Positions 8,799 to 46,600 are shown, counted from the first letter of the stretch. The stretch: 64,000 nucleotides of DNA from Actinomycetota bacterium (GCA_020444505.1 JAHLKU010000001.1:62810-126809), one strand, 5' to 3'. The notes: generated from the sequence alone by a model not told the origin. Made by a program: numbers and translations.

Positions 8799-9506
8799 AT
8801 GCGTCCAAAGGGGGGCGAGATGGCGAGACGGCTGCTGCCGTTGGCGATCGTGTGGGTGGTGCTCGTCGCCGGCTGCGGCGAAGACGAAGCCGGGACCACT
8901 GCCACGACCTCGGCCGCGACGACCACGACCGTGATCAGCACGACGGCCACGACGACCAGCACGACGACATCGACGACCACGACGACCAGCACCACGACCA
9001 CGACGGTCCCGGAACCGACGGTGGTCGAGGTCGACGTCGACACCTACGACGAGGCGGCGAGCATCTGGGACGAGTACGTGGGCTTCAGCGACATCGCCTC
9101 CCTGGAGGACAGCGCGTATCCGTTCAGCCACGTATGGGGGGCCAGGTCGGGTGAGTTCGTCTACGTCGTGGAGATCCCCGACCAGCCGGCCGGCGAGGCG
9201 ACCGTGTCCGCCAGGCTCTCGTCCGAACTGGGCGGCGGCACCGAGGACGACGTCGACGACGCCCTCTCCGACGTCGGCCTGCGGGTGAACGGCGTCGACT
9301 ACCCGGTGCGACCGGTGGTGTCGGACGACCGAGCGGGTGAGGTGGTCGAGTGGACCGTCGACGGGGCGGACTTCGCCGCCGGTGCCAACGAGATCGCGTT
9401 CACCGTGGCCGGCGACGCCGAGCACCGCTGGGGGCTGTGCATCTACCAGGATCCGGTCGACGGGGAGGGCCCGTCCTACCCGATCACCATCACCTACACG
9501 CCCTGA
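8799..9506 (+). CDS. secreted lipoprotein with a Thr-rich linker, unknown function
   Basis: Signal peptide plus lipobox LVAGC, followed by about 45 residues of T/S/A low complexity and a roughly 150-aa acidic domain. TAGGCT at 8787-8792 lies 6 nt upstream of ATG 8799. An alternative ATG at 8820 follows a G-rich SD. Confidence 0.6.
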   Translation: MRPKGGEMARRLLPLAIVWVVLVAGCGEDEAGTTATTSAATTTTVISTTATTTSTTTSTTTTTSTTTTTVPEPTVVEVDVDTYDEAASIWDEYVGFSDIASLEDSAYPFSHVWGARSGEFVYVVEIPDQPAGEATVSARLSSELGGGTEDDVDDALSDVGLRVNGVDYPVRPVVSDDRAGEVVEWTVDGADFAAGANEIAFTVAGDAEHRWGLCIYQDPVDGEGPSYPITITYTP

Positions 9507-10123
9507 TCGGCCGGCCCGTCGCCACCCCCGAACGCCCGGCGCACCCTGGCCCAGAAGCCGGGGGCGGCGCCGGCGGTGCCGGCGGCCCGGCCGTCCACCC
9601 TGCGCTGCCATGCGTCGCGCTCGCCCCGCATCTCCGACAGCCGCTCCCGCAGGAAGGCGGCCTCGGTCTCGGCCTTGGCGGCCCGCTCCCTCGCCTCGGC
9701 CAGCATCTGGCCGGCCTCGTGGAGGTTGCCCAACTGGTCCATCAGCTTGTCCCAGGCGTCGCGGGGGACCAGCATCGACGTCCCGTCGGCGGTGGGGCCG
9801 GGAGCGCCGTCGCGGCGGCCCTCCGGTGGCGCGGCGCGGCGGGGGGTGCGGCGCTCCGACAGGCGGGCCGCCACCGAGGGAGGGGTCACCATCCAGCGGC
9901 CGTCCTGCTTCACCGCGTCCACGGCCCCGGTGCGCGCCCACGAGGCCAGGGTGGACGGTGACACCCCGAACTGGTGGTGCGCCTCCCGCAGGGTCACCCG
10001 GCCGCCGGGAGGTTCGGCGGGTTCCGGGGCGCGTTCGGGGGTGGGCGGCGCCGCCGTGCGGCGCGGCAGGGGTGGGCGCCGGGGGCGGTCGTCCTGCCAG
10101 ATGAGTGCCGGGTCGTCGGCCAT
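9494..10123 (-). CDS. helix-turn-helix (MerR/excisionase-type) DNA-binding protein with a C-terminal coiled coil
   Basis: HTH segment VTLREAHHQFGVSPSTLASWARTGAVDAVKQDGRWMV and coiled coil LMDQLGNLHEAGQMLAEARERAAKAETEAAFLRERLSEM. It is divergent from the BMC operon. Confidence 0.65.
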   Translation of the reverse strand: MADDPALIWQDDRPRRPPLPRRTAAPPTPERAPEPAEPPGGRVTLREAHHQFGVSPSTLASWARTGAVDAVKQDGRWMVTPPSVAARLSERRTPRRAAPPEGRRDGAPGPTADGTSMLVPRDAWDKLMDQLGNLHEAGQMLAEARERAAKAETEAAFLRERLSEMRGERDAWQRRVDGRAAGTAGAAPGFWARVRRAFGGGDGPADQGV

Positions 10124-10199
10124 GTCCCTCGTTCCAGGTCGGTGATCAGCCTAGATCGCCCGTCCCGGCGACCGCCCTCCCCGGTCGGGGGCGGCGCCG

Positions 10200-10208
10200 T
10201 GGGATAAT
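10200..10208 (+). promoter_or_regulatory. extended -10 promoter element (TGgGATAAT) for the BMC operon, leaderless arrangement
   Basis: TGGGATAAT ends 6 nt before the GTG start at 10215. There is no SD in between. Confidence 0.4.
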
Positions 10209-10214
10209 CCCCGG

Positions 10215-10835
10215 GTGACGCCCCGCGCCCTGCCCACCGAAGAGGAGATCCGCGCCCTCGTGCGCAAGGTGGTGGCGTCGGTAGCCGCCGGTGCGCCGCC
10301 GGCGGAGGGCAGGGCCGCAGACGCTCCCGCCCCGGCGCCCGCCCCGCCCCCCGCTGCGGCGATGGGGACGATCGCCGTCGGCGCCGACCACGGCGGCTTC
10401 CGCCTCAAGGAGCGCCTGGCCTTCCGCCTCAAGGAGCAGGGCTGGGCGGTCGTGGACTGCGGCACCGACAGCACCGAGGCCGCCGACTACCCGGAGTTCG
10501 CCCGGGCCGTCGCCGAGCGCGTCGCCTCCGGCGAGGCCGACTGGGGCATCGTCGTGGACGGAGCCGGCATCGGGTCGTCGATGGCCGCCAACAAGGTGCC
10601 GGGGGTGCGGGCGGCGCTCTGCTACGACCTGTCGTCGGCGGCCAACAGCAGGGAGCACAACCATGCCAACGTGCTGACCCTCGGCGCAGGCCTGGTGGGG
10701 GAGGCCCTCGCCTGGCAGATCGTCCAGACCTGGCTGGGCACCCCGTGGGCCGAAGGGCGCCATGCCCGCCGGGTGGCGATGATCGACGACCTCGACCGGC
10801 GCTACCGTGACGGTTCCGCACGAGGACGGGAGTGA
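10215..10835 (+). CDS. RpiB/LacA/LacB-family sugar-phosphate isomerase with an N-terminal encapsulation-peptide-like extension (BMC cargo)
   Basis: Core IAVGADHGGF...GIVVDGAGIGSSMAANKVPGVRAAL...HNHANVLTLG matches RpiB. It is preceded by about 50 extra residues: the amphipathic helix EEEIRALVRKVVASV followed by an Ala/Pro linker. Confidence 0.85.
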   Translation: MTPRALPTEEEIRALVRKVVASVAAGAPPAEGRAADAPAPAPAPPPAAAMGTIAVGADHGGFRLKERLAFRLKEQGWAVVDCGTDSTEAADYPEFARAVAERVASGEADWGIVVDGAGIGSSMAANKVPGVRAALCYDLSSAANSREHNHANVLTLGAGLVGEALAWQIVQTWLGTPWAEGRHARRVAMIDDLDRRYRDGSARGRE

Positions 10836-11683
10836 TGGATCAGGACGCGATCGTCGAGGCGGTCACCCGCGAAGTGCTCGCGGCGCTGACCGGCGAGGCC
10901 TGGGACCACTACCTGGCGTGCATCGGCGACTGCGCCGCCCACTCCTCCGACCAGGTCCGCGACGTGGTCGCCGCCGGCGCCACCCGCATCTCGTTCAACG
11001 GGTCGGGCGCCGATGTGCCCACCGACCTGGCCGGGTACATCGACCACACCCTCCTCAAGGCCGATGCCTCCGCCAAGGACATCGACCGGATGTGCGATGA
11101 GGCCGTCACCTACAAGTTCGCATCGGTGTGCGTCAACCCGGCCTGGGTGCGCCGGGTGGCGGAGCACCTGCGCGGCAGCGACGTCATCGCCTGTTCCGTG
11201 GTGGGGTTCCCCCTCGGCGCCCACACCCCCGAGATCAAGGCCATGGAAGCGCGGCGCGCCCTGCGGGACGGCGCCAGGGAGATCGACATGGTGGTGAACA
11301 TCGGCGCCGTCAAGTCGGGCGACTGGGACACGGTCGAGCGCGACATCGCCGGGGTGGCCGACGCCTGCCGGGAGGCGGGTGCGGTGTGCAAGGTCATCAT
11401 CGAGGCGGCCATGCTGGACGACGACGAGAAGGTCGTCGTCAGCCGCCTCGCCCGCAAGGCCAAGGCGCACTACGTGAAGACGTCCACCGGGTTCGGGCCG
11501 GGCGGCGCCACGGTGTACGACGTGGCCCTGATGCGGGAGGCGGTCGGGCCCGACATGGGCGTGAAGGCGTCCGGCGGCATCAAGACCCGCAAGGACGCAC
11601 AGGACATGATCGCCGCCGGGGCCACCCGGATCGGGGCGTCGGCGGGCATCGAGATCGTCAGCGAAGCGGGAGGTACCGCGTGA
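10832..11683 (+). CDS. deoC: deoxyribose-phosphate aldolase (DERA) with an N-terminal extension (BMC cargo)
   Basis: IDHTLLK...[10 protein letters not shown]...GFPLGAH...EIDMVVNIG...CKVIIE...YVKTSTGF...GVKASGGI...RIGASAG. An N-terminal extension of about 65 aa begins with [19 protein letters not shown] 10832 (or ATG 10835) overlaps the previous stop. Confidence 0.9.
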
Positions 11684-12309
11684 GCAGCAACGTCGAACTG
11701 CGGGGCTATTCGTTCCTGGACAGCCTGCAGCCGCAGTACGCCGCCTACCTGGGCACGGTGGCGCGCGGGTTCCTGCCGCTGGCCGGCGAGGCCTCGCTGA
11801 TGGTGGAGATCTCCCCGGGCATCGAGATCAACCGCCTCACCGACGTGGCCCTGAAGAGCACCACGGTCAAGCCCGGCATGCAGATCGTCGAGCGCTACTT
11901 CGGCCTGCTCGAGGTGCACTCCCCGAGCCAGGCGGAGACCCGGGCGGCGGGGGCGGCGATCCTCGATGCGGTCGGCCTCTCCGAGGACGACCGCATCAGG
12001 CCCCGCATCGCCAGCAGCCAGATCATCCGGCGCATCGACGACCATCAGGCACAGCTGATCAACCGCATGCGCTACGGCCACATGCTCATCCCCGGCCAGA
12101 CCCTCTACGTGCTGGAGATGGAGCCGGCGTCCTACGCCGCGCTGGCGGCCAACGAGGCCGAGAAGGCCGCAGAGATCAACGTCCTCGAAGTCCGCTCCTT
12201 CGGCTCGCTGGGCCGGGTGTACCTCGGAGGTGAGGAGCGGGACATCGACGTGGGCTGGAGAGCGGCGGTCGCCGCGCTGGAGGGGCTCTCCGGCAGGGAG
12301 ATGAAGTAG
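11680..12309 (+). CDS. BMC shell protein, tandem-domain (BMC-T)
   Basis: 209 aa with two BMC-like repeats ([22 protein letters not shown]... and [29 protein letters not shown]...). GTG 11680 overlaps the deoC TGA and is preceded by GGGAGG. Confidence 0.75.
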
Positions 12310-12340
12310 GTTCCCCGAAAGGCAAGGAGACGAGGAGCAG

Positions 12341-12646
12341 ATGGCTGAAGCATTGGGCATGATCGAATGCCGAGGGTTCCCGGCGATGGTCGAGGCGGCC
12401 GACGCCATGGTGAAGGCCGCCAAGGTCGAGCTGGTGTCGATGGAGAAGACCGGCGGCGGGTACGTCACCGCCGTGGTCCGCGGTGACGTGGCCGCGGTGA
12501 AGGCAGCCGTCGACGCCGGCACCCGCGGTGCCGAGAAGGTCGGCGAGGTCATCGCGACCCACGTGATCGCGCGCCCGCACGTCAACATCGACCAGGTGCT
12601 GCCCCTCGGCAGGGCCGAGGAGGCCGCGGCCGAGCAGAGCGGGTAG
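12341..12646 (+). CDS. BMC shell protein, hexamer-forming (BMC-H, PduA/EutM/CcmK-like)
   Basis: [60 protein letters not shown] is a canonical Pfam00936-type sequence. Confidence 0.95.
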
Positions 12647-12652
12647 CCCGCC

Positions 12653-12940
12653 ATGCTGCTCGGCAGAGTCGCCGGCACGCTGGTGGCGAGCCGCAAGGAG
12701 GAGACCCTCGAGGGCCTCAAGTTCCTGGTGCTCAAGCAGGTCGACGTCGACGGCGGAGACACCGGCGGCTACGTGGTGGCCGCCGACGCCGTCGGCGCCG
12801 GCCTGGGCGAGGTGGTGCTCTACGCCACCGGTTCCAGCGCGAGGCAGACCCGCTACACGCACGAACGTCCCTGTGACGCGGTGGTGATGGCCATCGTGGA
12901 CACCTGGGAGGTCGGCGGCGAGGAGAAGTACCGGAAGTGA
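12653..12940 (+). CDS. BMC vertex protein (BMC-P, EutN/CcmL/PduN-like), copy 1
   Basis: [31 protein letters not shown]...[16 protein letters not shown]...AVVMAIVD. Confidence 0.9.
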
Positions 12941-12943
12941 GCG

Positions 12944-14398
12944 ATGGCTGAGCCGTTCTCCCCGGAGGAGGTCCACGAGATCATCGCCCGGGTCCGGCGC
13001 CGCCTCGGCGGCACCGACACCGAGGCCCCCGCCAAGCCGCGCGTCCCGGCGGAGATCCCCGAGACGCAGCTGGGGGAGGGCATCTACGCCACCATCGACG
13101 AGGCGGTTCGCGCCGCGGGTCGGGCGTTCGATGCGTACCAGGCGCTCGGCCCCGACGGCCGGGAGGCGGTGGTCGCCTCGATCCGCAGGACGATGCTGGA
13201 GCACGCCCCCCGGCTCGCCAAGATCGCGGTCGAGGAGACCGGCCTGGGCCGGGAGGAGGACAAGCTCCGCAAGATCCTCCTCGTCACCAACCGCACTCCC
13301 GGCCCCGAGGACCTCGACCCGATCATCGAGACGGGCGAGCACGGCATGATGCTCACCGAGATGGCCCCGATGGGGCTGGTGGCGGCGATCACCCCCACCA
13401 CCAACCCGGTGTCCACCATCGTCAACAACTCGATCGCCATCCTGTCGGGCGGCAACGCCGCCGTCCTCAACGTCCACCCCAACGCCAAGCGCGTGTCGGC
13501 GGAGAACGTCCGGCTCATCAACCGCGCCGTCATCGCAGGGGGAGGCCCCCCCGACCTGGTGACGGCCATCCCCGAGCCCACCATCGAGAGCGCCCAGGAA
13601 CTGATGCACCACCCGGCGATCCGGGTGCTGCTCGTCACCGGCGGCGGCGGGGTGGTGCGCGAGGCGCTGAAGACCGACAAACGGGCGGTGGCGGCGGGGC
13701 CGGGGAACCCTCCCGCCGTCGTCGACGAGACGGCCAACATCGAGGCGGCCGCCAGGGACATCGTGGCCGGGGCGTCGTTCGACAACAACATCATCTGCAT
13801 CGACGAGAAGACCGTCATCGCGGTCCGCGGCATCGCCGACGAGTTGATCCGCTCCATGGGGCGGCACGGCGCCCGGGTGCTCAAGGAGCACGAGTTGAAG
13901 AAGGTCGAGCGGGTGATCTTCTCGTCGATGGGCCCGCCGTCGAAGCCGGGCATCATCAACCCGGCGTGGATCGGCAAGGACGCCGCCGTGATCGCCCAGG
14001 CCGCCGGGGTCGAGGTGGACGGCGACCCCCGGGTGCTGCTGGCGGAGGTGCCGGCCGAGCACAACCTGGTGTGGACCGAGCAGATGATGCCGGTCCTCCC
14101 CCTGGTGCGGGTGCCGGATGTGGACGCCGCCATCGACCTGGCGGTGGAGAGCGAGCACCGCTTCCGCCACACCGCTTCGATCCACAGCACCAACGTGCAG
14201 ACGATCACCCGCATGGCCCGCACCATCAACGTGAGCATCTTCATCGCCAACGGTCCCAACTACGCCGGGCTGGGCGAGGGCGGCGAAGGCTTCACATCGT
14301 TCTCCATCGCCAGCCCCACCGGAGACGGCCTCACCCGGCCGCTCACCTTCACCCGGGAGCGGCGGATCGCCGTCGTCGGGGCCCTGAGGATCGTCTGA
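12944..14398 (+). CDS. CoA-acylating aldehyde dehydrogenase (PduP/EutE family) with an N-terminal encapsulation-peptide-like helix
   Basis: [15 protein letters not shown], the catalytic-Cys context [12 protein letters not shown], and a C-terminal [10 protein letters not shown]. The N-terminus [15 protein letters not shown] is followed by a Pro-rich linker. Confidence 0.9.
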
Positions 14399-14399
14399 G

Positions 14400-15005
14400 G
14401 TGGCCCGCCACCCCGCCATCGCCCTCCTGGAGTTCGGGTCGGTCACCGCCGGGATCGTCGCCGGCGACGCCATGGTGAAGCGGGCACCGGTGGCGCTCCA
14501 CAGCGGCACCGTCCAGCCCGGCCACTACCTGGTGCTGATCGCCGGTGAGGTCGGCGACGTCGAGGAGGCCGTGGACGCAGGCACCACGGCGTCCGGCGAC
14601 GTGCTGCTCGACCTGGTGCTGCTCTCCGACGTGCACCCCGACGTGGTGGCGGCGCTGCGCGGCGCCAGGCTGCCGGGGCCGGCGGAGGCGCTCGGCATCA
14701 TCGAGACCCAGACGGTGGCCTCCATCCTGGAGGCGGCCGACGCCGGGGTGAAGGGCGCCGCAGCCGATCTGCTGGAGGTGCACCTGGCCGACGGCCTCGG
14801 CGGGCGCGGCTACCTGCTGTTCGGGGGCACGGTGTCCGACGTGGAGGCGGCGGTGGACATCGGTTCGGCACGGGCCCACGAGGGGACGCTGGTGCGCCGC
14901 GCCGTCATCTCGCGACTGCACGACGAGATGCGCGCCGACCTCGACGCCCACCCCCGGTTCGGTCCGTCGGTCGGCAGGGGAGGGGGCGGCGATGCGGCTG
15001 GCTGA
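14400..15005 (+). CDS. BMC shell protein, tandem-domain (BMC-T, PduT-like fusion of two BMC domains)
   Basis: Two repeats: [25 protein letters not shown]... and [30 protein letters not shown].... GTG start lies 1 nt after the aldehyde dehydrogenase stop. Confidence 0.85.
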
Positions 15006-15261
15006 GGTCACCGGCACCGTGGTCGCCACGATCAAGTACGAGGGGCTGGAGGGGGTCAAGTTCCTGGTGGTCCAGCCGCTGGACCGCGACCTCAAGCCCA
15101 AGGGGCGCCAGGTGGTGGCCGCCGACGCGGTCGCCATGGCCGGCCCCGGCGAACTGGTGTACGTGGTGGAGTCCCGCGAGGCCGCGCTGGCGTGCCCGGT
15201 GCCGTTCGTGCCCGTGGACCACGCCATCGTCGGCATCGTGGACCAGGTGGAGCGGTCGTGA
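14992..15261 (+). CDS. BMC vertex protein (BMC-P), copy 2
   Basis: [31 protein letters not shown]...VVAADAVAMAGPGELV...AIVGIVD. A G-rich SD lies upstream and the gene overlaps the BMC-T 3' end by 14 nt. Confidence 0.9.
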   Translation: MRLAEVTGTVVATIKYEGLEGVKFLVVQPLDRDLKPKGRQVVAADAVAMAGPGELVYVVESREAALACPVPFVPVDHAIVGIVDQVERS

Positions 15262-15554
15262 AGTTCGGGCGCGTCTCCGGCACGGTGGTCAGCACGATCA
15301 ACCACCCGCTGTACGACCACCGGCGCCTGCTGATGTGCGACCTGTTGGATGCCGACGGCAACGACACCGGCGACTACCTCATCTGCGTCGACACCGTGCA
15401 GGCGGGGCCGGGAGAGGCGGTGCTGATCCTGGACGAGGGCAACGGGGCCAGGCAGGTGCTGGCCTGGAAGGACGGGCCCATCCGGTCGGTGATCGTGGGC
15501 ATCGTCGACGAGATGGTCGTGGACGGCGTCGTGCACGACGTCACGCCCGGGTAG
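15258..15554 (+). CDS. BMC vertex protein (BMC-P), copy 3
   Basis: VKFGRVSGTVVSTINHPLYDHRRLLMCDLLD...ICVDTVQAGPGEAVLI...SVIVGIVD. GTG 15258 overlaps the previous TGA (GTGA). Confidence 0.85.
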   Translation: MKFGRVSGTVVSTINHPLYDHRRLLMCDLLDADGNDTGDYLICVDTVQAGPGEAVLILDEGNGARQVLAWKDGPIRSVIVGIVDEMVVDGVVHDVTPG

Positions 15555-15575
15555 GGTCCGCGCCGGAGGTCACCC

Positions 15576-15938
15576 ATGCGCAGGAGGATCACCGCCGTGC
15601 TCGCCGCCGTGGCGCTCGCCGCCTGCGGCGGCGGCGCAGAGCAGGGCCGCCCCGACCCCGCCGGCCTCGGTTCCTGCGACGCGGTGGCCGAGGCGGTCGT
15701 TGCGGTCATCCAGGAGAACATCGTGCTCGTGGACGACGCCGCCGATGCGCTCACCGAGCCCGACCCGGCCGTCGTGGCCGACCTGGAGCAGGCAGGCGCG
15801 GCCCTGGAGGCCAGGGCCGCCGAACTGGGGTGCACCGACGACGAGATGACGGCGGCGATCGCCGCCAGGGCCGGCGGCCTCGAGGCTCGCAGCGTCTACG
15901 GGCAGCTGATCATCGAGGGCCTGCTGGGAGACGGCTGA
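15576..15938 (+). CDS. small lipoprotein, unknown function
   Basis: Signal peptide plus lipobox ALAAC, followed by an acidic helical domain with 2 Cys. It lies 21 nt after the last BMC-P gene. It resembles the ORF at 17301..17705. Confidence 0.55.
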   Translation: MRRRITAVLAAVALAACGGGAEQGRPDPAGLGSCDAVAEAVVAVIQENIVLVDDAADALTEPDPAVVADLEQAGAALEARAAELGCTDDEMTAAIAARAGGLEARSVYGQLIIEGLLGDG

Positions 15939-15952
15939 GGGCCCGCTCCCGC

Positions 15953-16336
15953 TCAGCCGCCCGGAGCCTCCCGCGGCCCCGCGCCGCGGTACACGTGGAC
16001 GGTCACCGGCTGCGTGGTGATGAGCCCGTCGCCGACCATCTCGTCGAGCACCGGGAGGATGGCCGCCACCTTGTCGGCACGCGAGACGCACTCGATGACG
16101 ATGGGGAGGTCCTCGGAGAGCCGCAGCACCGACGAGGTGTGCAGACGGCTGGACCGGCCGAACCCCTCGATGCCCTTCAGCACCGTGGCGCCCGACAGGT
16201 TGCTGGCCCGCAGCGTCTCGACGATGGCGTGGTGGAGCGGCCGCCCCTCGTGGCGGTCGTCCTCGCCGACGAAGATCCGCAGCAGCACGCCCTCCTCAGG
16301 GGCGCCTGCGGGGGAGGGACGGGGGTCGGGTTCCAT
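15953..16336 (-). CDS. DUF190 (PII-like) protein associated with CrcB
   Basis: LLRIFVGEDDRHEGRPLHHAIVETLRASNLSGATVLKGIEGFG...LPIVIECV. It is the last gene of the riboswitch-crcB-crcB operon. Confidence 0.8.
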   Translation of the reverse strand: MEPDPRPSPAGAPEEGVLLRIFVGEDDRHEGRPLHHAIVETLRASNLSGATVLKGIEGFGRSSRLHTSSVLRLSEDLPIVIECVSRADKVAAILPVLDEMVGDGLITTQPVTVHVYRGAGPREAPGG

Positions 16337-16357
16337 GGTGTGCCTCCTGCTCGGTCC

Positions 16358-16708
16358 TCAGTGTGCCAGGGCGTACCCGAGGGCGGCGAGGGCGATGCCG
16401 GCCGCCGGCATCCCGGCCAGGTTGAGTGCGGCCCGCAGCCACTCCCCCGACCGGGCCATCGCAAGGGTCTCGGCGCTCCAGGTGGAGAAGGTGGTGAACC
16501 CGGCGAGGAGGCCGACCAGCGCGGCGTTGACGGCCGTGCCTGGCTCCGTGGCGCCCAGGGCCACCCCGGCGGCGAGGCTGCCCGCCAGGTTGACGGCCAT
16601 CGTGCCGGTGGGGAAGTGCCCGCGGCCCGCCGCCTGGGCGAGGCCGGCCGCCCAGTAGCGGCCCGCCGCCCCGATGCTTCCGGCCACGATCGCCACCAGC
16701 GCCGTCAT
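16358..16708 (-). CDS. crcB: fluoride ion channel CrcB/FluC, subunit 2
   Basis: 116 aa with 4 TM helices and GFTTFSTWS. ATG 16706-16708 overlaps the upstream crcB stop. Confidence 0.9.
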   Translation of the reverse strand: MTALVAIVAGSIGAAGRYWAAGLAQAAGRGHFPTGTMAVNLAGSLAAGVALGATEPGTAVNAALVGLLAGFTTFSTWSAETLAMARSGEWLRAALNLAGMPAAGIALAALGYALAH

Positions 16709-17106: not shown

Positions 17107-17117
17107 GGCTCCTCCTC

Positions 17118-17172
17118 GTTCCGTAGGAGCCATCAGCCGGCGCGGCGGTTGCGGCGAGCCCCATCGCCGTGA
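17118..17172 (-). promoter_or_regulatory. fluoride riboswitch (crcB RNA motif)
   Basis: The reverse complement of 17121-17168 reads GGCGAUGGGGCUCGCCGCAACCGCCGCGCCGGCUGAUGGCUCCUACGG. It has the conserved GGCGAUG, GCC, AAC, CUGAUG and CUCCUAC blocks in the right order and lies directly upstream of crcB. Confidence 0.85.
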
Positions 17173-17300
17173 GGCGCCCGCACCTGCCCGCGAGGGGTGG
17201 GGCGGTGCCGGGCCGGGGACCGGCCGGGGCGCGCTCGGGCCGGATCGTACTGCGACGGGGCCGGCCGACCGCCATCCCGGGCGGCGCTAACCTCGCCGTG

Positions 17301-18465: not shown

Positions 18466-19125
18466 ATGGCGCGCAGGCTGCGTGTGGAGTGGTCGAAGGG
18501 GCGCAAGGTGACCGCCGATCTGGCGGTGCCCGGCGACCCGCGCGGCCCCGCCGTCCTGCTCGCCCACGGCGCAGGCGCGGGGCGGCGGCATCCGTTCATG
18601 GCCGGGCTGGTGGCGAGGCTCGTGGCGGCCGGGCATCCCACCATGGTGTTCGACTACCCGTACATGGAGGAGGGCCGCAGGGCCCCCGACCGGATGCCGG
18701 CGCTGCTGGCCTGCCACCGTGCCGCCCACGACCGCCTGGCCGCCTACGGGTGGCCGGTCGTGCTGGCCGGCAAGTCGATGGGCGGCCGGATGGCGTCGCA
18801 CCTGGCCGCCGGCCTCGCGGGCCCGGCCGGGCTGGCGGTCTACGGCTACCCCCTGGTGTCGCCGTCGAGCGGCGCGGTGCGGGACACCGCGCACCTGCGG
18901 GAGACCGGCGTCCCGATGCTGTTCCTGAGCGGCTCACGCGACCGCCTCGCCCCGATGGGCCTGCTCCGCCCGGTCGTGGAGTCCCTCCCCTCCGCCACCC
19001 TGGAGGTGGTGGAGGGCGCAGGGCACTCCTTCGAGGTGCCCGCCCGATCGGGTCTGACGTTCGACGGCGTGCTGGACCGCCTGGCCGCCGTGACGGCGGC
19101 ATGGCTCGGCGGGCTCAGGCGATGA
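18466..19125 (+). CDS. alpha/beta hydrolase (dienelactone-hydrolase/KANL3-like)
   Basis: ATG 18466. AHGAGAG, the nucleophile elbow GKSMGG, and GSRD...GAGHSF. Confidence 0.75.
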   Translation: MARRLRVEWSKGRKVTADLAVPGDPRGPAVLLAHGAGAGRRHPFMAGLVARLVAAGHPTMVFDYPYMEEGRRAPDRMPALLACHRAAHDRLAAYGWPVVLAGKSMGGRMASHLAAGLAGPAGLAVYGYPLVSPSSGAVRDTAHLRETGVPMLFLSGSRDRLAPMGLLRPVVESLPSATLEVVEGAGHSFEVPARSGLTFDGVLDRLAAVTAAWLGGLRR

Positions 19126-19579
19126 CGGGCGGAGGGTCGTAGGCGCCGCTGGCCACCCGGCCGCTCGCCCCCGGCTCGAGGTGCCAGACCGACCCCTTCT
19201 CCCACACCAGGCCGGCGTCGAGATCGGTGCCCCCGGCCGCGAGCCGCCCGAGGAGACCGGAGATGACGTCCCCGTGGCTGCACAGCACCGCCCCGGGGCC
19301 GACCCCGGCGAGGAGGGCGTCCACGAGGTGCCCGGGGGCCTCCTCGGCGAGGGCTCGCTCGACCTCCACCGGCACGCCCACGGCCCCGGCCAGGGGCTCC
19401 ACCGACTGCACGCACCGCAGGTAGGGGCTGGTCAGGATCCGCCGCACCCCGAGGGGGGCGAGACGGCCGGCGATGGCCTCGGCCTCGGCGCGGCCCCTGG
19501 CCGACAGCGGCCGGTCCACGTCGTCGCCGTCCCAGTCGGCCCTGCGGCCGGCATGGGCGTGGCGGAACACATGGATCAT
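19115..19579 (-). CDS. histidine phosphatase family protein (SixA/MutT1 C-terminal-domain-like)
   Basis: MIHVFRHAHAG (RHG-type motif), SPYLRCVQS, and CSHGDVI. Its ATG overlaps the ppk-nudix stop (ATGA). Confidence 0.8.
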   Translation of the reverse strand: MIHVFRHAHAGRRADWDGDDVDRPLSARGRAEAEAIAGRLAPLGVRRILTSPYLRCVQSVEPLAGAVGVPVEVERALAEEAPGHLVDALLAGVGPGAVLCSHGDVISGLLGRLAAGGTDLDAGLVWEKGSVWHLEPGASGRVASGAYDPPPVIA

Positions 19580-22080
19580 CGGCTCAGTGCCTCCTCGAGC
19601 GAGCGGACCAGGGCCCGGTCCCGATCGTAGGACAGCCGTACCGCGGCCTCGCCGACGGGGAGCCACTCGGTGGCATCCACCTCTTCGTTGGGCAGGAACT
19701 CTCCGCTCTCGAGGGTCATCGCCCAGTAGCGGACCACCTTGTGCAGCCCCTGGCCGTCCACGTACTCGATGGACCCCATCTCGGGGCCGAGCGCGCAGTC
19801 GAGCCCGGTCTCCTCGAACACCTCGCGCAGCGCAGCGTCGGCTTCGGTCTCGCCCGGCTCCAGCTTGCCCTTGGGGAGCGACCAGTCGTCGTAGCGGGGC
19901 CGGTGGACGACCAGCACCTCCCTGCCGCCGTCCGCCCCGCGGCGATGGACGACGCCCCCGGCGGCCATGACGGTGGTGGCGGTGGTGGCCCCGGCGGCCT
20001 CCGGGTCGGGCTCGGCGCCCTCCGACCTCGCCAGCGCCAGCTCTTCGAAGCGGAAGTGGGCGTTGATGCCCTCGATCGACGGCACCCTGGCCCAGGTGCC
20101 GTCGGCGTCGAGGGTGTAGGCCAGCAGGTCGTCGGCCAGGTTCACCCGCAGCACCTCCTCGAGGCGGGCCTGCAGGCCGGGGTCGGTGATGGGGATGACC
20201 GCCTCGACCCGCGAGTTCAGGTTGCGCTGCATCATGTCGGCGGAGCCGATGAGGTACTCGACGCCGTCGCCCTGCCCGAAGCGGAACACCCTGCTGTGCT
20301 CCAGGTACTTGCCGACGATGGAACGGACCCGGATGGTCTCCGAGAGGCCGGGGACGCCCGGCCGCAGGCAGCAGACCCCGCGGATCACCAGATCGATGGG
20401 CACCCCGGCGGCGGAGGCGGCGTAGAGGGCGTCGACGATGCCCGGGTCCACCAGGTGGTTGAGCTTCATCACGATGCGCCCTTCGGCGCCCAGGTCGGCC
20501 TGGGCCCGGATGCGGCGCACCAGCATGCGGCGCAGGCTGGTGGGGGCGACCAGCAGGCGCCGGTACTTCTTCTGGCGGCTGAACCCGGTGAGCACGTTGA
20601 ACAACTCGCTCAGGTCGGCGCCGATCTCCTCGTCGGCCGTCAGCAGGCCCAGGTCCTCGTAGAGGGTGGCGGTCTTGGGGTTGTAGTTGCCGGTGCCCAC
20701 GTGGCTGTAGCGGCGGAGGCCCGACGGCTCGCGCCGCACCACCAGGGCGATCTTGGAGTGGGTCTTGAGGCCGCTGACGCCGTAGACCACGTGGACGCCG
20801 GCTTCCTCCAGCATCCGGCCCCAGGCGATGTTGGCCTCCTCGTCGAAGCGCGCCTTCAACTCGATGAGGCAGACCACCTGCTTGCCGGCGCGGGCGGCCG
20901 CCATCAGCGAGCGGACGATCGACTGCTCGCCGCCGAGCGCCGGGTCGCCGGGGTCGGACGTGCGGTACAGGGTCTGCTTGATCGCCACGACGGCGGGGTC
21001 GGTGGCCGCGTGGGCGATGAACGCCTGCACCGACGTGACGAACGAGTCGTAGGGCAGGTGGATCAGCAGGTCGTTGGCGGCCACGGCCTCGAAGATGTTG
21101 TGGTCGTCCCTGGCGAGCGCCGGCTGGGTCACCGGCGCCCACGGGGCGTCTTTCAACTCGGGGCGGTCGATGCCGTACAGGCCCCACAGTCCGTCGAGGG
21201 CGAGCGGGGCCTGGGAGACGTACAGGGCGGCGGGGTCCAGCTTCAGCTTGGAGACGAGGAAGTCCCGCAGGTCGTCCGGCATCCCGGCGTCCACCTCGAG
21301 CCGGATGGCGCGCGAGAAGCGGTGGCGGGTGACGAGCAGCGACTCCATCGCCTCGACCAGGTCGTCGGCCTCCTCCTCCTCGAGGGCCTGGTCGGCGCTG
21401 CGGGTGACCTGGAACACGTGGTGCCCGGCGACGTCCATGCCGGGGAAGAGCCGGTCGATGTGGGCGCTGATCACCTGCTCGACGGGGACGTAGCGCTCCT
21501 GGTCGGGCAGGACGATGAACCGGGGGAGCGTCTGCGGCACCTTGATCCTGGCGAACTGCTCCTCGCCCGTCTTGGGGTTCGTCACCAGCACGGCCAGGTT
21601 CAGCGACAGGTTGCTGATGTAGGGGAACGGGTGGGACGGGTCCACCGCCAGCGGGGTGAGCACCGGGTACATCTCGGTCTCGAACAGGTGGTCGAGCTCC
21701 TTGCGGTCGGCCTTGGCGAGGTCGTCGTAGTCGGTGAGCCGGATGTCCTGCGCCTCGAGCTCGGGGATGATCTCGTTCAGGAACACCCGCTCCTTGCGGG
21801 CGACGAGGCGCTGGGTCTTCTCTGCGATCTCCTCCAGCTGCTGCGCCGGGGTGCGCCCGTCGGCGGTGGCCTTGCGGATGCCGGCGGCGCGCTGCTCCAT
21901 GAGGCCGGCCACGCGCACCTGGAAGAACTCGTTCAGGTTGCTGGTGACGATCGCCACGAACTTGACGCGCTCCAGCAGCGGGATGTTGGGGTTCTCGGCC
22001 AGCGCCAGCACCCGCTCCTGGAAGTCGAGGAGCGACAGCTCACGGTTGAAGTAGCGGGCCTGGGCCGTATCGGTTCGCAG
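19576..22080 (-). CDS. ppk: polyphosphate kinase 1 fused to a C-terminal NUDIX hydrolase domain
   Basis: PPK1 N-terminus RYFNRELSLLDFQERVLALAENPNIPLLERVKFVAIVTSNLNEFF, then the PLD-like HSK motifs. The C-terminal roughly 135 aa carry the Nudix box GKLEPGETEADAALREVFEETG. The start is uncertain: CTG 22078-22080 follows GGAGG, while the tracked GTG 22011 would truncate conserved N-terminal residues. Confidence 0.85.
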   Translation of the reverse strand: MRTDTAQARYFNRELSLLDFQERVLALAENPNIPLLERVKFVAIVTSNLNEFFQVRVAGLMEQRAAGIRKATADGRTPAQQLEEIAEKTQRLVARKERVFLNEIIPELEAQDIRLTDYDDLAKADRKELDHLFETEMYPVLTPLAVDPSHPFPYISNLSLNLAVLVTNPKTGEEQFARIKVPQTLPRFIVLPDQERYVPVEQVISAHIDRLFPGMDVAGHHVFQVTRSADQALEEEEADDLVEAMESLLVTRHRFSRAIRLEVDAGMPDDLRDFLVSKLKLDPAALYVSQAPLALDGLWGLYGIDRPELKDAPWAPVTQPALARDDHNIFEAVAANDLLIHLPYDSFVTSVQAFIAHAATDPAVVAIKQTLYRTSDPGDPALGGEQSIVRSLMAAARAGKQVVCLIELKARFDEEANIAWGRMLEEAGVHVVYGVSGLKTHSKIALVVRREPSGLRRYSHVGTGNYNPKTATLYEDLGLLTADEEIGADLSELFNVLTGFSRQKKYRRLLVAPTSLRRMLVRRIRAQADLGAEGRIVMKLNHLVDPGIVDALYAASAAGVPIDLVIRGVCCLRPGVPGLSETIRVRSIVGKYLEHSRVFRFGQGDGVEYLIGSADMMQRNLNSRVEAVIPITDPGLQARLEEVLRVNLADDLLAYTLDADGTWARVPSIEGINAHFRFEELALARSEGAEPDPEAAGATTATTVMAAGGVVHRRGADGGREVLVVHRPRYDDWSLPKGKLEPGETEADAALREVFEETGLDCALGPEMGSIEYVDGQGLHKVVRYWAMTLESGEFLPNEEVDATEWLPVGEAAVRLSYDRDRALVRSLEEALSR

Positions 22081-22135: not shown

Positions 22136-22597
22136 TCAGGCGCCGCCGGCCCCGAAGCGGTCTTCGAGGGCGGCCACCTTGCCCACCCGGCGCACGTGCC
22201 GGTCGTCGCCGCTGAAGCGTGCGCCGAGGAAGGCGTCCACGACCTCGTCGGCCACGGCGGGCCCGATCACTCGGCTGCCGACGGCCAGGACGTTGGCGTC
22301 GTCGTGCTCCACCGACTGGTGGGCGCTGTAGGTGTCGTGGGCGAGCGCGCAGCGGACGCCCTTCACCTTGTTGGCGGCGATGGAGGCACCGGCGCCGGAC
22401 CCGCACACCACGATGCCGCGGTGCGCCCGCCCCTCGGCGACGGCGCGGCCCACGGCCTCGGCGTAGTCGGGGTAGTCCACCGGCTCCTCGCTGTGGGTGC
22501 CGAGGTCGAGCACCGAGTGCCCGGCGGCGGCGATGCGGGCCCCCAGCGCCTCCTTGAGGGCGTACCCGGCGTGGTCGGCTGCGATGGCGACTCTCAC
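22136..22597 (-). CDS. rpiB: ribose-5-phosphate isomerase B (housekeeping copy)
   Basis: [15 protein letters not shown]...[25 protein letters not shown]...[10 protein letters not shown]. No N-terminal extension. Confidence 0.9.
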
Positions 22598-22668
22598 GTC
22601 CCGGCAGCGTAGCCGCTGCGGGCGCCGCCCCCGGGAACGCTGCCGTCGGCCCGGCGTAGGATGGCCCG

Positions 22669-43634: not shown

Positions 43635-46600
43635 CTAGAACACCTCGTTGGTGGCCTTGATCCACGCCTTCATGTAGAGCGCGACGGCCCGGAAGTAGTC
43701 GCCTTCGGCAGCAGCCTTGTCGCCGCACCTGATCCACTTCTCGGCCCTCGACTGGTCCCACGCCGAGGCGTTGGACTCCTCGAGTGCGATGGTGGCGAGC
43801 AGCCGATCGGCTTCGAGCAGCTTCTCGATCACGGCGGTCACCTCGGCGTCGATCGCCGGCGAGGTCCAGAGCAGGCGTCGGACCGCCCGCCGCTCGGCCG
43901 CGAACACGCGCTTGCCGGTGTCCTTGTCGAGCGTCCGCTCCGACGTCCACAGCTCGGGCGCCAGGCTCGCCTCGATGTCGGCGATGGCCCTGGTGATCCG
44001 CCGGTCGTCGACCACACCCCCGAGCCCGAGGATGTCGGTGAGATCGGCCTGGGCGTCTCGCTTCAGATCGGCCGGCGTGGTCCGCAGGTCGAGGCCGACC
44101 AGGACCGGGTCGTGGTCGCTGGAGCGGAACTCGTCGTCGGAGTAGTTGGCCGCCGGGTTGTAGTCGTTGTAGTCGAGCGCCGGGGGCTCCACCGAGTTGA
44201 TGTGCCACGCGGCGGCACCGGTGACGGCACCGGATGCCTCGTCGTTGGCCAGCCCGTAGTCGAGCGTCCCGTGCTCGCCGTCGTACACGTAGGAGTAGCC
44301 GCCCTCGGCGAACGAGTTCCCGACGTACGCCTCGATGAGGTCGGTCCACCCCAGCCCCTCCAGGGCCGTGATCGGGTCCTCGTTGGCGTACGAGTTCAGG
44401 TCGCCGAGGATGAGCGCCGCGTCGGCGCCGGTGCCGGTCGGGTCGTCGTCCATCCACTGCCCCAGCACCTGGGCCGCTGCGGTCCTGGTGAGGTTGCAGT
44501 TCCCGGCATACCCGCCGGTGTCCGGGTCCTCGGCGTAGGGTGCCACGCCGTAGGCCGGGTCGCCGGGGTTGGCCGTGTCGTCGCAATCGCTGCCCTTCGA
44601 CTTCAGGTGGTTGATGGCCACCGTCACCGAGCCGCCGGTGGCGGTCTCCTGGAACGTCTGGGCCAGCGCCGGGCGGTTCTTCTCGTCGAGGAACGCCGGG
44701 CTCACCGTCGAGTCGAGCAGCGCGAACGCGCCGTCGGGGGTGGTGGTGAGCGTGTCGTAGATGAAGCCCACCGCGATCTCGTCGGAGCCGATGACCCCGG
44801 TGTCGATGTAGTCGTACACCCGGGTGGCTCCGGCGGCGGCGTTGAGCCGCCCGACGAGATCGGCGATGGCGGTGCCGTTGTTCTCGATCTCGATCAACCC
44901 GACCACGTCGGCGTCGAGTTCGACGATGGCCGACACGATCTTGTCGGCCTGGCGCTCGAACTCGTCCGCCGTCTCCGCTCCCCGGCTGCCCAGGGTGGTG
45001 AAGTAGTTGAGCACGTTGAACGAGGCGACGGTGAAGCCGCTCCCCACGTCCGGCAGCGCCGGGCGGGTGGTGAAACCGGTGAAGGTGATCGCGTCCGCCG
45101 GGTGCAGCGGATCGGCCACGTTCACCGGCTGGATCTCGTACTGGTCGAACGCGTAGTGGAGCACGCCGGCGAGCCCGGTGATGGCGTCACCGCTGCGCAG
45201 CGTCCCGCCGTTCTGCAGGTACGGGGTGGTCGCCGGGTTCCAGGTCTCGTTGGGGTACGACTCGTTCTCTTCCTCGCCGTCGTCGAGGACGATCCGGCTG
45301 GCCGTGTTCAGGGCCCGCACCTCGTCGGCGGCGGCCGAGTCGGCGGCCGCCACCTGGTTCGGCTGGTCCTGCGGCCCGATGGCCGACAGCACCACCTCGC
45401 CGAACGAGCCGAGGCGGTAGGTCTCGGTGACGTGGAGGGTCTGGGCGATCGCCACCCGCATGCCCTCCATCGACTCCCAATCGACCTCCTCGTCGGCCGG
45501 GTCGGTGGGCAGCACCGGGGCGGCGGCGGTCGGCAGTGCGTTGCCGGAGGAGCAGACGGCGATGGCGTCCACGGAGCCGACCTCGGTGAGGTCGTAGTAC
45601 TCCGACACCGTGCCCTGCACCCGCACCAGGTCGCCCACCGACACGTCGGTGCCGCCCGGGGCGTAGACGAAGACGCCCTCGGACGTGGCGGCGTCGGCGT
45701 CGGCGTCGGCGTCCTCCTCCTGCAGCATGAACCCGTCGAGGGGCTCGTCGTCGGGCCCGCCGTCGAAGGCCTGGAAGTCGCCGACGACGATGCCCTCGAT
45801 CTCGACGACGTCGCCGACCAGTGGGCTGGCATCACCGTCGCCCTGCACGTCGTGGATGGCCGTGGCGGGGTCGCCACAGGTGATCTCCACCGCGAGTTCG
45901 GTGTTCAGGTCGCCGGGGCTGGCGAGCCCCGGGCCCACCCAGGTGCCGTCGTACAACTGCAGCGACTCGTCGGGCTGTGTGGACGAGCCCTCGGCGACGC
46001 CGACGTCGGTGCTGGTGACGCCGGAGGCTGCGCCGTCGGTGGCTTCGAACGTGCCCTCGTAGGACAGGAACTCGATCAGTTCGTTCGAGTCGTTGACGAG
46101 CGCGAACCCGTCCGGGGCGCCGTTCTGGATCCCGGACCTGAGGAACGACAGTGCGCCCATGCCGCCGGACTCGTCGTCGATGGTGCCGGACAGGGCGATG
46201 GTGTCGTACACGGCGCCGCCGCTGCCGTTGTACAGCAGGACGCTCCACCCGGTCAGGTCGGTGCCGGCGTCGCCGGTCACCTCGACGAACTCGTTGGCGT
46301 CGGTGCCGTCGTTGTCGTAGTGGATCTCGCTCAGGTAGACGGTGGGCGGTTCTTCGACGGTGGCGGTCTCGTCGATGAGCACGTTCTGGAAGGCGAAGCC
46401 CTCTTCCCCGCCGTCGGTGGCCGCCGTGAACGTCAGCGTGAGTGCGCTGCCGGTGCCGTCGATGTTGGTCTTGAACGTCGTGAGTACGTTGGTGACGATC
46501 GTGCCGTTCATCGACAGCGGGTCGTCGAGGGTGGTTTCGGTGCCGCTCGCCAGCGTGTAGGTGAGCGAGCCTGCCTCGTCCACCGAGGACTCGAACGCGG

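Follow-up and report, generated by a model that had tools for sequence, protein, structure and literature searches.

A probable SPU3 microcompartment operon, compact and self-contained, in an uncultured Acidimicrobiia-like actinobacterium

Gene content and organization of the operon

A stretch of 64,000 nucleotides from an Actinomycetota bacterium (GCA_020444505.1, JAHLKU010000001.1:62810-126809), referred to here as the window, carries an operon for a bacterial microcompartment (BMC) of the sugar phosphate utilisation (SPU) type. The operon consists of nine tightly packed open reading frames (ORFs) at 10215-15554 on the plus strand, which encode, in order, an RpiB-like protein (RPI), deoxyribose-5-phosphate aldolase (DERA), a BMC-T shell protein, a BMC-H, a BMC-P, an acylating aldehyde dehydrogenase (AldDh), a second BMC-T and two further BMC-P proteins. 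An earlier description of the same DNA, made without database searches and called here the sequence-only reading, had listed nine packed or overlapping same-strand genes in this order, and the confirmed coordinates, the profile matches and public gene calls all agree with it. Families were assigned by Pfam and NCBIfam profile searches, and structure matches by comparison with the PDB. Three PF00936-type and three PF03319 shell genes lie within 3.9 kb, with enzyme genes between them.

The genes are closely spaced, and no overlap exceeds 14 nt and no gap 31 nt. Overlaps occur between RPI and DERA (4 nt), DERA and the first BMC-T (4 nt), the second BMC-T and the second BMC-P (14 nt), and the second and third BMC-P (4 nt). 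Independent gene calls in public assemblies of the same organism agree on all nine genes; in these calls the ninth product has 98 aa, and its gene most likely starts at 15258 (GTG), not at 15192. The DERA start may be 10835 (ATG) instead of 10832. The window has a GC content of 70-76% along its entire length, and the operon ORFs that were measured show a third-position GC of 0.89-0.97, which is of the coding type. These data bear on the idea that the nine ORFs came together by chance or are what is left of a decaying, non-functional operon. Each ORF is intact and spans the full length of its homologues, the measured ones have coding-type codon bias, and both gene order and chromosomal site are kept in several Acidimicrobiia genomes whose operon genes are about 65-80% identical, which effectively refutes this idea.

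Shell proteins

All six shell genes match BMC profiles (PF00936 or the CcmP model for the H and T types, PF03319 for the P type), the check that the sequence-only reading had proposed for them. Its count of 1 H : 2 T : 3 P is right, with the refinement that the two BMC-T proteins fall in different classes, Tdp and Ts. The BMC-H (12341..12646; PF00936, 102 bits) and three EutN/CcmL-like proteins that it had called unmistakable are confirmed as well, the latter by PF03319 matches of 95 bits for BMC-P 1 (12653..12940), 89 bits for BMC-P 2 (14992..15261) and 75 bits for BMC-P 3 (15258..15554). A second shell locus was not found within the 64-kb window.

BMC-H is 79% identical to HO-5815 of Haliangium ochraceum (5DJB, 5V74), with which it shares the KTGGGY pore loop and the KAAK and RPH edge motifs. 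This protein is the sole hexamer of the operon and is presumed to be the main facet protein. Among the pentamers, BMC-P 1 has its best PDB match in chain A1 of 5V74 (118 bits), BMC-P 2 reaches 42-47 bits at most against any solved pentamer, and BMC-P 3 is closest to EutN (2HD3, 58 bits). The three are only about 37-44% identical to one another, and P2 and P3 are divergent paralogues encoded by adjacent, overlapping genes (14992-15554).

The first BMC-T (11680..12309) is a Tdp protein of the CcmP/CsoS1D type, which matches the CcmP model NF053796 at 330 bits (E 5e-99); its permuted domain explains the low score of 21 bits on PF00936, and in precomputed Pfam the gene is assigned to PF27545 CsoS1D_N. 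It is 66% identical to CcmP (4HT5/5LSR) and 59% identical to Haliangium BMC-T3 (5V76), and its match to CcmP is better than that to CsoS1D (181 bits). Residues E71-R72 align with the E69-R70 gating pair of CcmP. In the literature, such a Glu-Arg pair gates a pore of about 14 Å in CcmP and CsoS1D, and the alignment suggests that the window Tdp would likewise form a double-stacked gated trimer. The second BMC-T (14400..15005) is a PduT-like Ts protein with two PF00936 domains (106 bits) and best PDB matches to PduT structures (3N79, 3VCD). It contains no cysteine at all and has Gln39 in the PduT pore loop (TVQPGH vs TISPGK). The protein is therefore unable to hold the 4Fe-4S cluster of PduT, and its role is presumably structural.

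Aldehyde dehydrogenase, aldolase and encapsulation peptides

AldDh (12944..14398; 484 aa) is of the PduP/EutE type and matches NF011927 at 587 bits. Among PDB entries it is closest to an aldehyde dehydrogenase from a Rhodopseudomonas palustris BMC (5JFL, E 1e-120), where the active-site Cys aligns with Cys285 of the window protein (FDNNIIC vs FDNNLPC of 5JFL). At the N-terminus, residues 6-21 are conserved and amphipathic and lead into a linker, and the C-terminus ends as in 5JFL, without an extension.

DERA (10832..11683) matches the deoC equivalog model TIGR00126 at 268 bits (cut-off 117). The motifs with the three catalytic residues of the E. coli enzyme are kept, namely D152 (EIDMV), K187 (KVIIE) and K216, the Schiff-base Lys (VKTSTGF). 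The protein aligns with solved DERAs (8QPS, 5DBU; E 1e-70) from residue 65 onward only. The 64 residues ahead of this region form an extension that contains an amphipathic helix, a degenerate Cys cluster (C30, C34, H37) and a conserved strand, and that aligns with the extensions of Chloroflexi SPU6-type DERAs, to which the whole protein is about 55% identical.

In BMC-type DERAs the Cys cluster (window residues ~28-40) directly precedes the conserved 'VRxVVxAGAxRhS' strand. Four Cys, often as CxxCGxC, are present in 39/97 representatives of 50% clusters that bear the extension and in the Chloroflexi SPU6-type DERAs, many Acidimicrobiia DERAs have three Cys and a His, and the window DERA has two Cys and a His. 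The proteins examined for this cluster include those of related loci L007, L008, L010, L023, L034 and L009 and database sequences P0124-P0195. The cluster may be a metal or Fe-S site; Dwyer et al. 2024 (PMC11585597) do not mention it in their main text. Many DERA relatives of 450-530 aa (such as P0130, P0135 and P0157) are not RPI-DERA fusions; in these proteins an encapsulation-peptide helix, a Rossmann/flavoprotein-like domain of about 180 aa and the 4-Cys motif precede DERA, which hints that other SPU-like compartments have a redox module attached to this enzyme.

The third enzyme-family protein, RPI, carries a conserved amphipathic segment, EEIRALVRKVVASV, followed by a poorly conserved Pro/Ala-rich linker. 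The N-terminal segments of all three proteins are amphipathic, kept in relatives and absent from non-BMC homologues. By this pattern, the segments of RPI, DERA and AldDh are putative encapsulation peptides (EPs), which would direct the three proteins into the shell.

The RpiB-like protein

RPI (10215..10835; 206 aa) matches PF02502 at 178 bits and consists of an N-terminal EP, the Pro/Ala-rich linker and an RpiB fold. The EP lies at residues ~7-23 (LPTEEEIRALVRKVVASV), and residues 10-23 have the second-highest hydrophobic moment of 192 windows along the protein. An N-terminal extension is present in 116 of the 120 closest database homologues. In one public record (P0005, 157 aa, on a 146-kb contig), the call of an identical RPI begins at an internal Met, and the EP is lost; that automated annotation hides EPs is a problem raised by Dwyer et al. 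2024 (PMC11585597).

Alignment to E. coli RpiB (1NN4) shows that Asp115 replaces the catalytic Cys66 and that Ala replaces Thr68 (ICGTG to VDGAG). The HN and GRHxxR motifs are retained, and in E. coli numbering Asp9, His10, His99 (His148 in the window protein), Asn100, Arg133, His134 and Arg137 are all kept. A canonical RpiB has Cys66 as its catalytic base, or Glu75 in the mycobacterial type, and Thr or Ser at position 68; the operon protein instead has Asp at 66 and Ala at 68 and lacks the mycobacterial Glu. The sequence-only reading had named this protein an RpiB-like isomerase; its place in the RpiB family stands, and a role as ribose-5-phosphate isomerase probably does not, given the changes of Cys66 to Asp and Thr68 to Ala. 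The same Cys66-to-Asp change has been reported for all SPU RPIs, with His99 retained (Dwyer, Sutter and Kerfeld 2024, PMC11585597). In that work the RPI of an SPU6 compartment had almost no ribose 5-phosphate (R5P) isomerase activity and formed a complex of about 1:1 with DERA. On its residues, the operon protein is probably not a ribose-5-phosphate isomerase.

A second, canonical RpiB is encoded in the window at 22136-22600 on the minus strand, 7 kb from the operon. Its catalytic Cys66 is retained (CGSG), and its identity to the BMC copy amounts to 47%; this protein is presumably the housekeeping isomerase. The presence of this Cys-containing protein indicates that the operon copy is a specialised paralogue. 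Homologues of the operon copy, 62-100% identical to it, occur in at least 120 database clusters, and the operon lineage is common in metagenomes. A search for Asp-variant RpiB proteins outside BMC loci yielded, in its best 120 database matches, close BMC-type relatives only.

The altered pocket is strongly conserved. The DGAGxGS motif is invariant in 17/17 BMC-linked homologues and in 120/120 of the closest database homologues. In the 17 BMC-linked proteins, which share only 47-93% identity with one another, 13/13 active-site and phosphate-site positions are invariant compared with 39/138 columns overall (hypergeometric p ~1e-8), the 13 being positions that we take to represent the RpiB active site. 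We read this invariance as a probable mark of selection on a functional site.

These observations raise the possibility that RPI is a working enzyme or substrate-handling subunit of the same organelle, not a dead scaffold. Asp115 could act as a base that isomerises a different sugar phosphate feeding DERA, or the retained His and the phosphate site could bind 2-deoxyribose-5-phosphate (dR5P), open its ring and pass it to DERA; as a consequence, the entry metabolite could differ from dR5P. The invariant pocket and motif, the canonical RpiB elsewhere in the window and the common occurrence of RPI-DERA gene fusions all speak for such a role. Against it stand the list of pocket positions, part of which is assumed, and the chemistry of dR5P, which has no 2-OH, so that aldose-ketose isomerisation is impossible. 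Additionally, SPU5 loci lack RPI altogether, the SPU6 RPI showed negligible activity on R5P, and its complex with DERA brought no kinetic gain for DERA in vitro (PMC11585597). On balance, a working RPI is possible and somewhat doubtful. Equally tentative is a wider proposal, in which the RpiB-like cargo would be a re-tooled sugar-phosphate pocket that carries out a catalytic or substrate-delivery step for DERA, and the extension of BMC-type DERAs would hold a widespread 4-Cys, possibly metal-binding, module that is degenerating in the window protein.

Assignment to SPU3 and comparison with known systems

The SPU type was defined in 2014, and the enlarged catalogue of 2021 divides it into seven subtypes, with over 280 loci from 26 phyla (Sutter 2021, Nat Commun). 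A DeoC-type aldolase (PF01791) is the signature enzyme unique to SPU among BMC loci. The SPU3 entry of this catalogue covers 31 loci, including members from Actinobacteria, Acidobacteria and Marinimicrobia (Sutter 2021, Supplementary Data 2); names of Acidimicrobiia were not found in the supplements of that study. In SPU3 the enzymes are limited to AldDh, PF01791 and PF02502, the last two sometimes fused with PF02502 first, and AldDh and DERA bear N-terminal EPs. The shell has one standard BMC-H, a BMC-P triplet, a CcmP-like Tdp and a Ts that lacks a pore cysteine and is not accompanied by PduS (Sutter 2021).

The window operon agrees with this description on every point checked. It has the general SPU features, namely a DeoC-type aldolase, a CoA-acylating AldDh, a BMC-P triplet, an Asp-variant RpiB and an extended DERA. 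It also has those particular to SPU3: a CcmP-like Tdp, a Cys-less Ts without PduS, no phosphotransacylase (PTAC) and an N-terminal EP on AldDh. The earlier assignment to SPU was thus borne out and, by the published description, can be narrowed to SPU3. The likeness to catalogued SPU3 loci extends to the same enzyme set, the EPs, the BMC-H, the Tdp, the Ts, the lack of PTAC and a BMC-P triplet in which two genes are adjacent. One difference concerns RPI and DERA, which are fused in 12/31 catalogued loci and in the window are separate proteins, each with its own EP. The operon is a further member of a catalogued type that has been partly studied biochemically and is common in metagenomes.

Other subtypes were considered and rejected. 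SPU1, SPU4 and SPU7 have PTAC and lack Tdp, SPU5 loci are without RPI, and SPU2 typically has a Ts with a Cys pore and a fourth BMC-P of the green clade. SPU6, represented by Chloroflexi bacterium GWB2_54_36, shares more with the window operon: a DERA extension of about 65-70 aa with the catalytic residues kept, an Asp-variant RPI with an EP, one BMC-H, one Tdp, three BMC-P and no PTAC. However, this subtype is confined to Chloroflexi and its gene order is RPI, DERA, P, AldDh, H, Tdp, P, P (loci L007 and L010). In addition, its AldDh belongs to another branch and carries a C-terminal EP, its Tdp is of a different clade, and Ts is missing.

Likeness to better-known compartments is confined to parts of the operon. 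The Haliangium ochraceum (HO) shell (5V74) resembles the predicted shell in its BMC-H (79%), its BMC-T3 (59% to Tdp), its pentamer matched by P1 and its BMC-P triplet. By contrast, HO has two Tdp and one Ts and its function is unknown; the window Ts is nearer to PduT than to HO BMC-T1, and an HO-type assignment was ruled out by the lack of RPI and DERA in the HO main locus. The Tdp shares with beta-carboxysomal CcmP 66% full-length identity, permuted tandem BMC domains and the Glu-Arg pair, whereas CcmP belongs to an anabolic, CO2-fixing organelle and the window protein to a predicted catabolic, aldehyde-handling one. The propanediol-utilisation (PDU) and ethanolamine-utilisation (EUT) compartments likewise combine an aldehyde-generating signature enzyme and an EP-tagged acylating AldDh with a BMC-H/T/P shell. 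In contrast to these systems, the operon lacks a B12-dependent enzyme, PduL/Pta, an alcohol dehydrogenase and an Fe-S PduT/PduS pair, and its signature enzyme is a class I aldolase.

Conservation of the operon in related loci

A genome-collection scan with the window DERA yielded related loci, which are cited here by their L numbers. The nine-gene order is kept in at least 15 loci from four phyla. It is present in metagenome-assembled genomes (MAGs) labelled Acidimicrobiia or Actinomycetota (L002, L003, L005) and in an unlabelled locus (L006), 86-96% identical, in Acidobacteriota (L011-L013, L018, L020, L026, L027) and in a Marinimicrobia MAG (L009). Chloroflexi loci (L007, L008, L010) share the parts and differ in their order. 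RPI and DERA form a single polypeptide in those Acidobacteriota and Marinimicrobia relatives that were examined, whereas in Acidimicrobiia relatives they are separate.

Loci L001, L003 and L085-L087 share the chromosomal site of the window, with murJ, the ABC transporter, a helix-turn-helix (HTH) gene, the operon, pgl and ppk. Since the operon occupies the same site in these loci, it is vertically stable in this Acidimicrobiia-like lineage. An all-against-all BLASTP comparison of ORFs of at least 90 aa in 12 loci revealed no accessory genes conserved across phyla beside the nine-gene block, and only lineage-specific synteny was seen. The block behaves as a self-contained module. Two loci have labels that stand out: L001 (CAXMOL010000106.1) is labelled Kiloniellaceae, yet on both sides of the operon it shows synteny to the window and to the Acidimicrobiia MAG L003, and L004 (DATHRO010000023.1) is labelled Deferrimicrobiaceae and has 70% GC and operon proteins 64-85% identical. 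Mis-binning of both contigs, or else recent transfer, is the probable explanation.

Proposed mechanism

Taken together, gene content, catalytic residues, EP pattern, shell classes and conservation of the block support, with a probability of roughly 0.8, a complete and self-contained SPU3 microcompartment operon of an uncultured high-GC Acidimicrobiia-like actinobacterium, with a mechanism based on dR5P. According to this proposal, the shell would be built of BMC-H hexamers, a structural PduT-like trimer, a gated CcmP-like double trimer and pentamers, and the three cargo proteins would be brought inside through their N-terminal amphipathic EPs. dR5P would enter the shell and be cleaved by DERA into glyceraldehyde-3-phosphate, which would exit to glycolysis, and acetaldehyde, which the acylating AldDh would turn into acetyl-CoA before it could escape. 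The RpiB-like protein would most likely bind DERA and help to assemble or feed the enzyme core. The sequence-only reading had put forward the same chemistry, with DERA making acetaldehyde and AldDh trapping it as acetyl-CoA, and this is the chemistry published for the SPU class. Purified SPU6 DERA is active on dR5P (PMC11585597).

Among the scanned ORFs of the 64-kb window there is no PTAC (PF06130), alcohol dehydrogenase (Fe-ADH) or PduS, and the Pfam-annotated flanks of L081 and L085-L087 contain neither PF06130 nor Fe-ADH. Without these enzymes in the locus, the CoA and NAD cofactors must cross the shell. CoA and acetyl-CoA, together with NAD+ and NADH, would do so most plausibly through the large gated CcmP-like pore. 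SPU types that lack PTAC typically have a Tdp, and cofactor exchange via this protein has been proposed (PMC11585597).

Several points weigh against this interpretation. This locus, like other SPU3 loci, is known from genes alone, and its subtype was assigned from the published description. The scanned ORFs of the window include no deoA, deoB, deoD, deoxyribokinase or nucleoside transporter. Unlike the classical metabolosome model, the compartment would have no internal enzyme for recycling NAD+ or CoA, and the invariant RPI pocket across phyla fits poorly with a purely structural role for this protein.

The absence of cofactor-recycling enzymes, which would otherwise fix the direction of the pathway, also leaves room for a compartment that serves mainly as an aldehyde sink or runs in reverse, with DERA joining acetaldehyde from fermentation or acetyl-CoA to glyceraldehyde-3-phosphate to give a sugar phosphate. 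DERA is reversible by established enzymology, and DERA and AldDh BMC genes are co-expressed in subseafloor Atribacteria, where they were read as aldehyde recycling. However, the catalogue and the 2024 enzyme work (PMC11585597) favour the catabolic direction, the need for a shell is more readily explained if it traps an aldehyde made within, and nothing in the window indicates fermentative aldehyde production. A sink or reverse role is quite improbable, and cleavage of dR5P is the preferred function of the compartment.

Promoter, candidate regulator and flanking genes

A -10-like element, GTGGGATAATC, lies at 10199..10209 on the plus strand, with GATAAT at 10203-10208, 6 nt before the GTG start of the operon. 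The motif was found only by aligning the upstream regions of relatives: GTGGRATAATC stands 5-6 nt before the first start and occupies the same place before RPI in L001, L002, L003 and L086. The window contains no other copy, and shuffled sequence gives an expectation of 0 matches. This short distance to the start suggests that the operon mRNA is probably leaderless, and the element would likewise be its promoter. A generic scan of 9400-16400 for two-hexamer promoters and terminators found nothing, as expected at 73% GC, and an Rfam scan revealed no riboswitch ahead of the operon.

A divergent gene at 9494..10123 on the minus strand encodes a small HTH protein with a weak HTH_17 match (PF12728 in the L085 orthologue). 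It occurs at the same position in L001, L003, L005 and L085-L087 and makes a candidate regulator by position only; its absence from the Acidobacteriota and Marinimicrobia loci means that this could be mere lineage synteny. Beyond this gene, the upstream region contains an ABC transporter and murJ. On the other side, a small lipoprotein-like ORF of 120 aa with no family match (15576-15938, plus strand) starts 21 nt after the last BMC-P gene, behind a GGAGG, and may share the operon transcript. An equally placed ORF in L001 is 45% identical to it, and none was detected in L003.

Further downstream, the opposite strand carries a DUF190-crcB-crcB unit, followed by pgl, a hydrolase gene and ppk. 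A fluoride riboswitch (RF01734, 51.9 bits) at 17117-17177 on the minus strand precedes the crcB-crcB-DUF190 unit, which abuts the operon, and another (RF01734, 34.5 bits) at 8-71 on the plus strand precedes an SPFH/Band 7 gene (68-1306). At 19115-22011 on the minus strand, a polyphosphate kinase 1 gene is fused to a C-terminal NUDIX domain and is followed by a PF00300 histidine-phosphatase ORF, an arrangement that also occurs in L085 and L087.

A distant extracellular nuclease

The window also encodes an ExeM/NucH family extracellular endonuclease of 1381 aa (43635-47720, minus strand), identified by NF033681 at 546 bits (cut-off 300). Pfam gave no match anywhere in this ORF, and the family was resolved by NCBIfam. 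The gene contains an internal direct duplication (46477-46776 and 47122-47421, with a spacing of 645 nt or 215 aa), whose 300-nt core is 96% identical between the copies and sits in an N-terminal region without a Pfam family.

The sequence-only reading had suggested, as a purely inferred link, that this nuclease and the operon belong to a route from extracellular DNA to deoxyribose. The identity of the nuclease was upheld, whereas the link found no support. For the operon to be half of a dedicated DNA-feeding system, the solid nuclease assignment can be cited, together with the SPU literature, in which dR5P is proposed to derive ultimately from DNA detritus. The nuclease gene, however, lies 28 kb from the operon on the opposite strand, with about 20 housekeeping genes between them, including ppk, rpiB, aroA, an Opp-type transporter, meaB, mnmA and ligA. 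The scanned ORFs of the window include no genes for nucleoside uptake or phosphorylases, and a tblastn search detected no nuclease homologue within 10 kb of any related locus, a range that a distance of 28 kb exceeds. Such a dedicated system is improbable.

Significance for SPU compartments

Few bacterial organelles are as widespread as SPU compartments, but no member of this type has been isolated, and for none has a physiological role been established. The earlier statement that no SPU compartment had been characterised needs qualification, since enzymes of the class were studied in 2024 (PMC11585597); it holds for the intact organelle and its in vivo role, neither of which has been shown. 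The window locus leaves current understanding unchanged, and its residual novelty lies in the RpiB-like pocket and the DERA Cys cluster. It provides comparative data on two questions, the role of the Asp-variant RpiB and the recycling of cofactors without PTAC or alcohol dehydrogenase. As a clean, minimal example of an SPU operon, with nine genes, no accessory enzymes and vertical stability in an abundant Acidimicrobiia lineage, it is also of practical value: it offers a compact candidate for heterologous reconstitution, with shell proteins close to the solved Haliangium shell.

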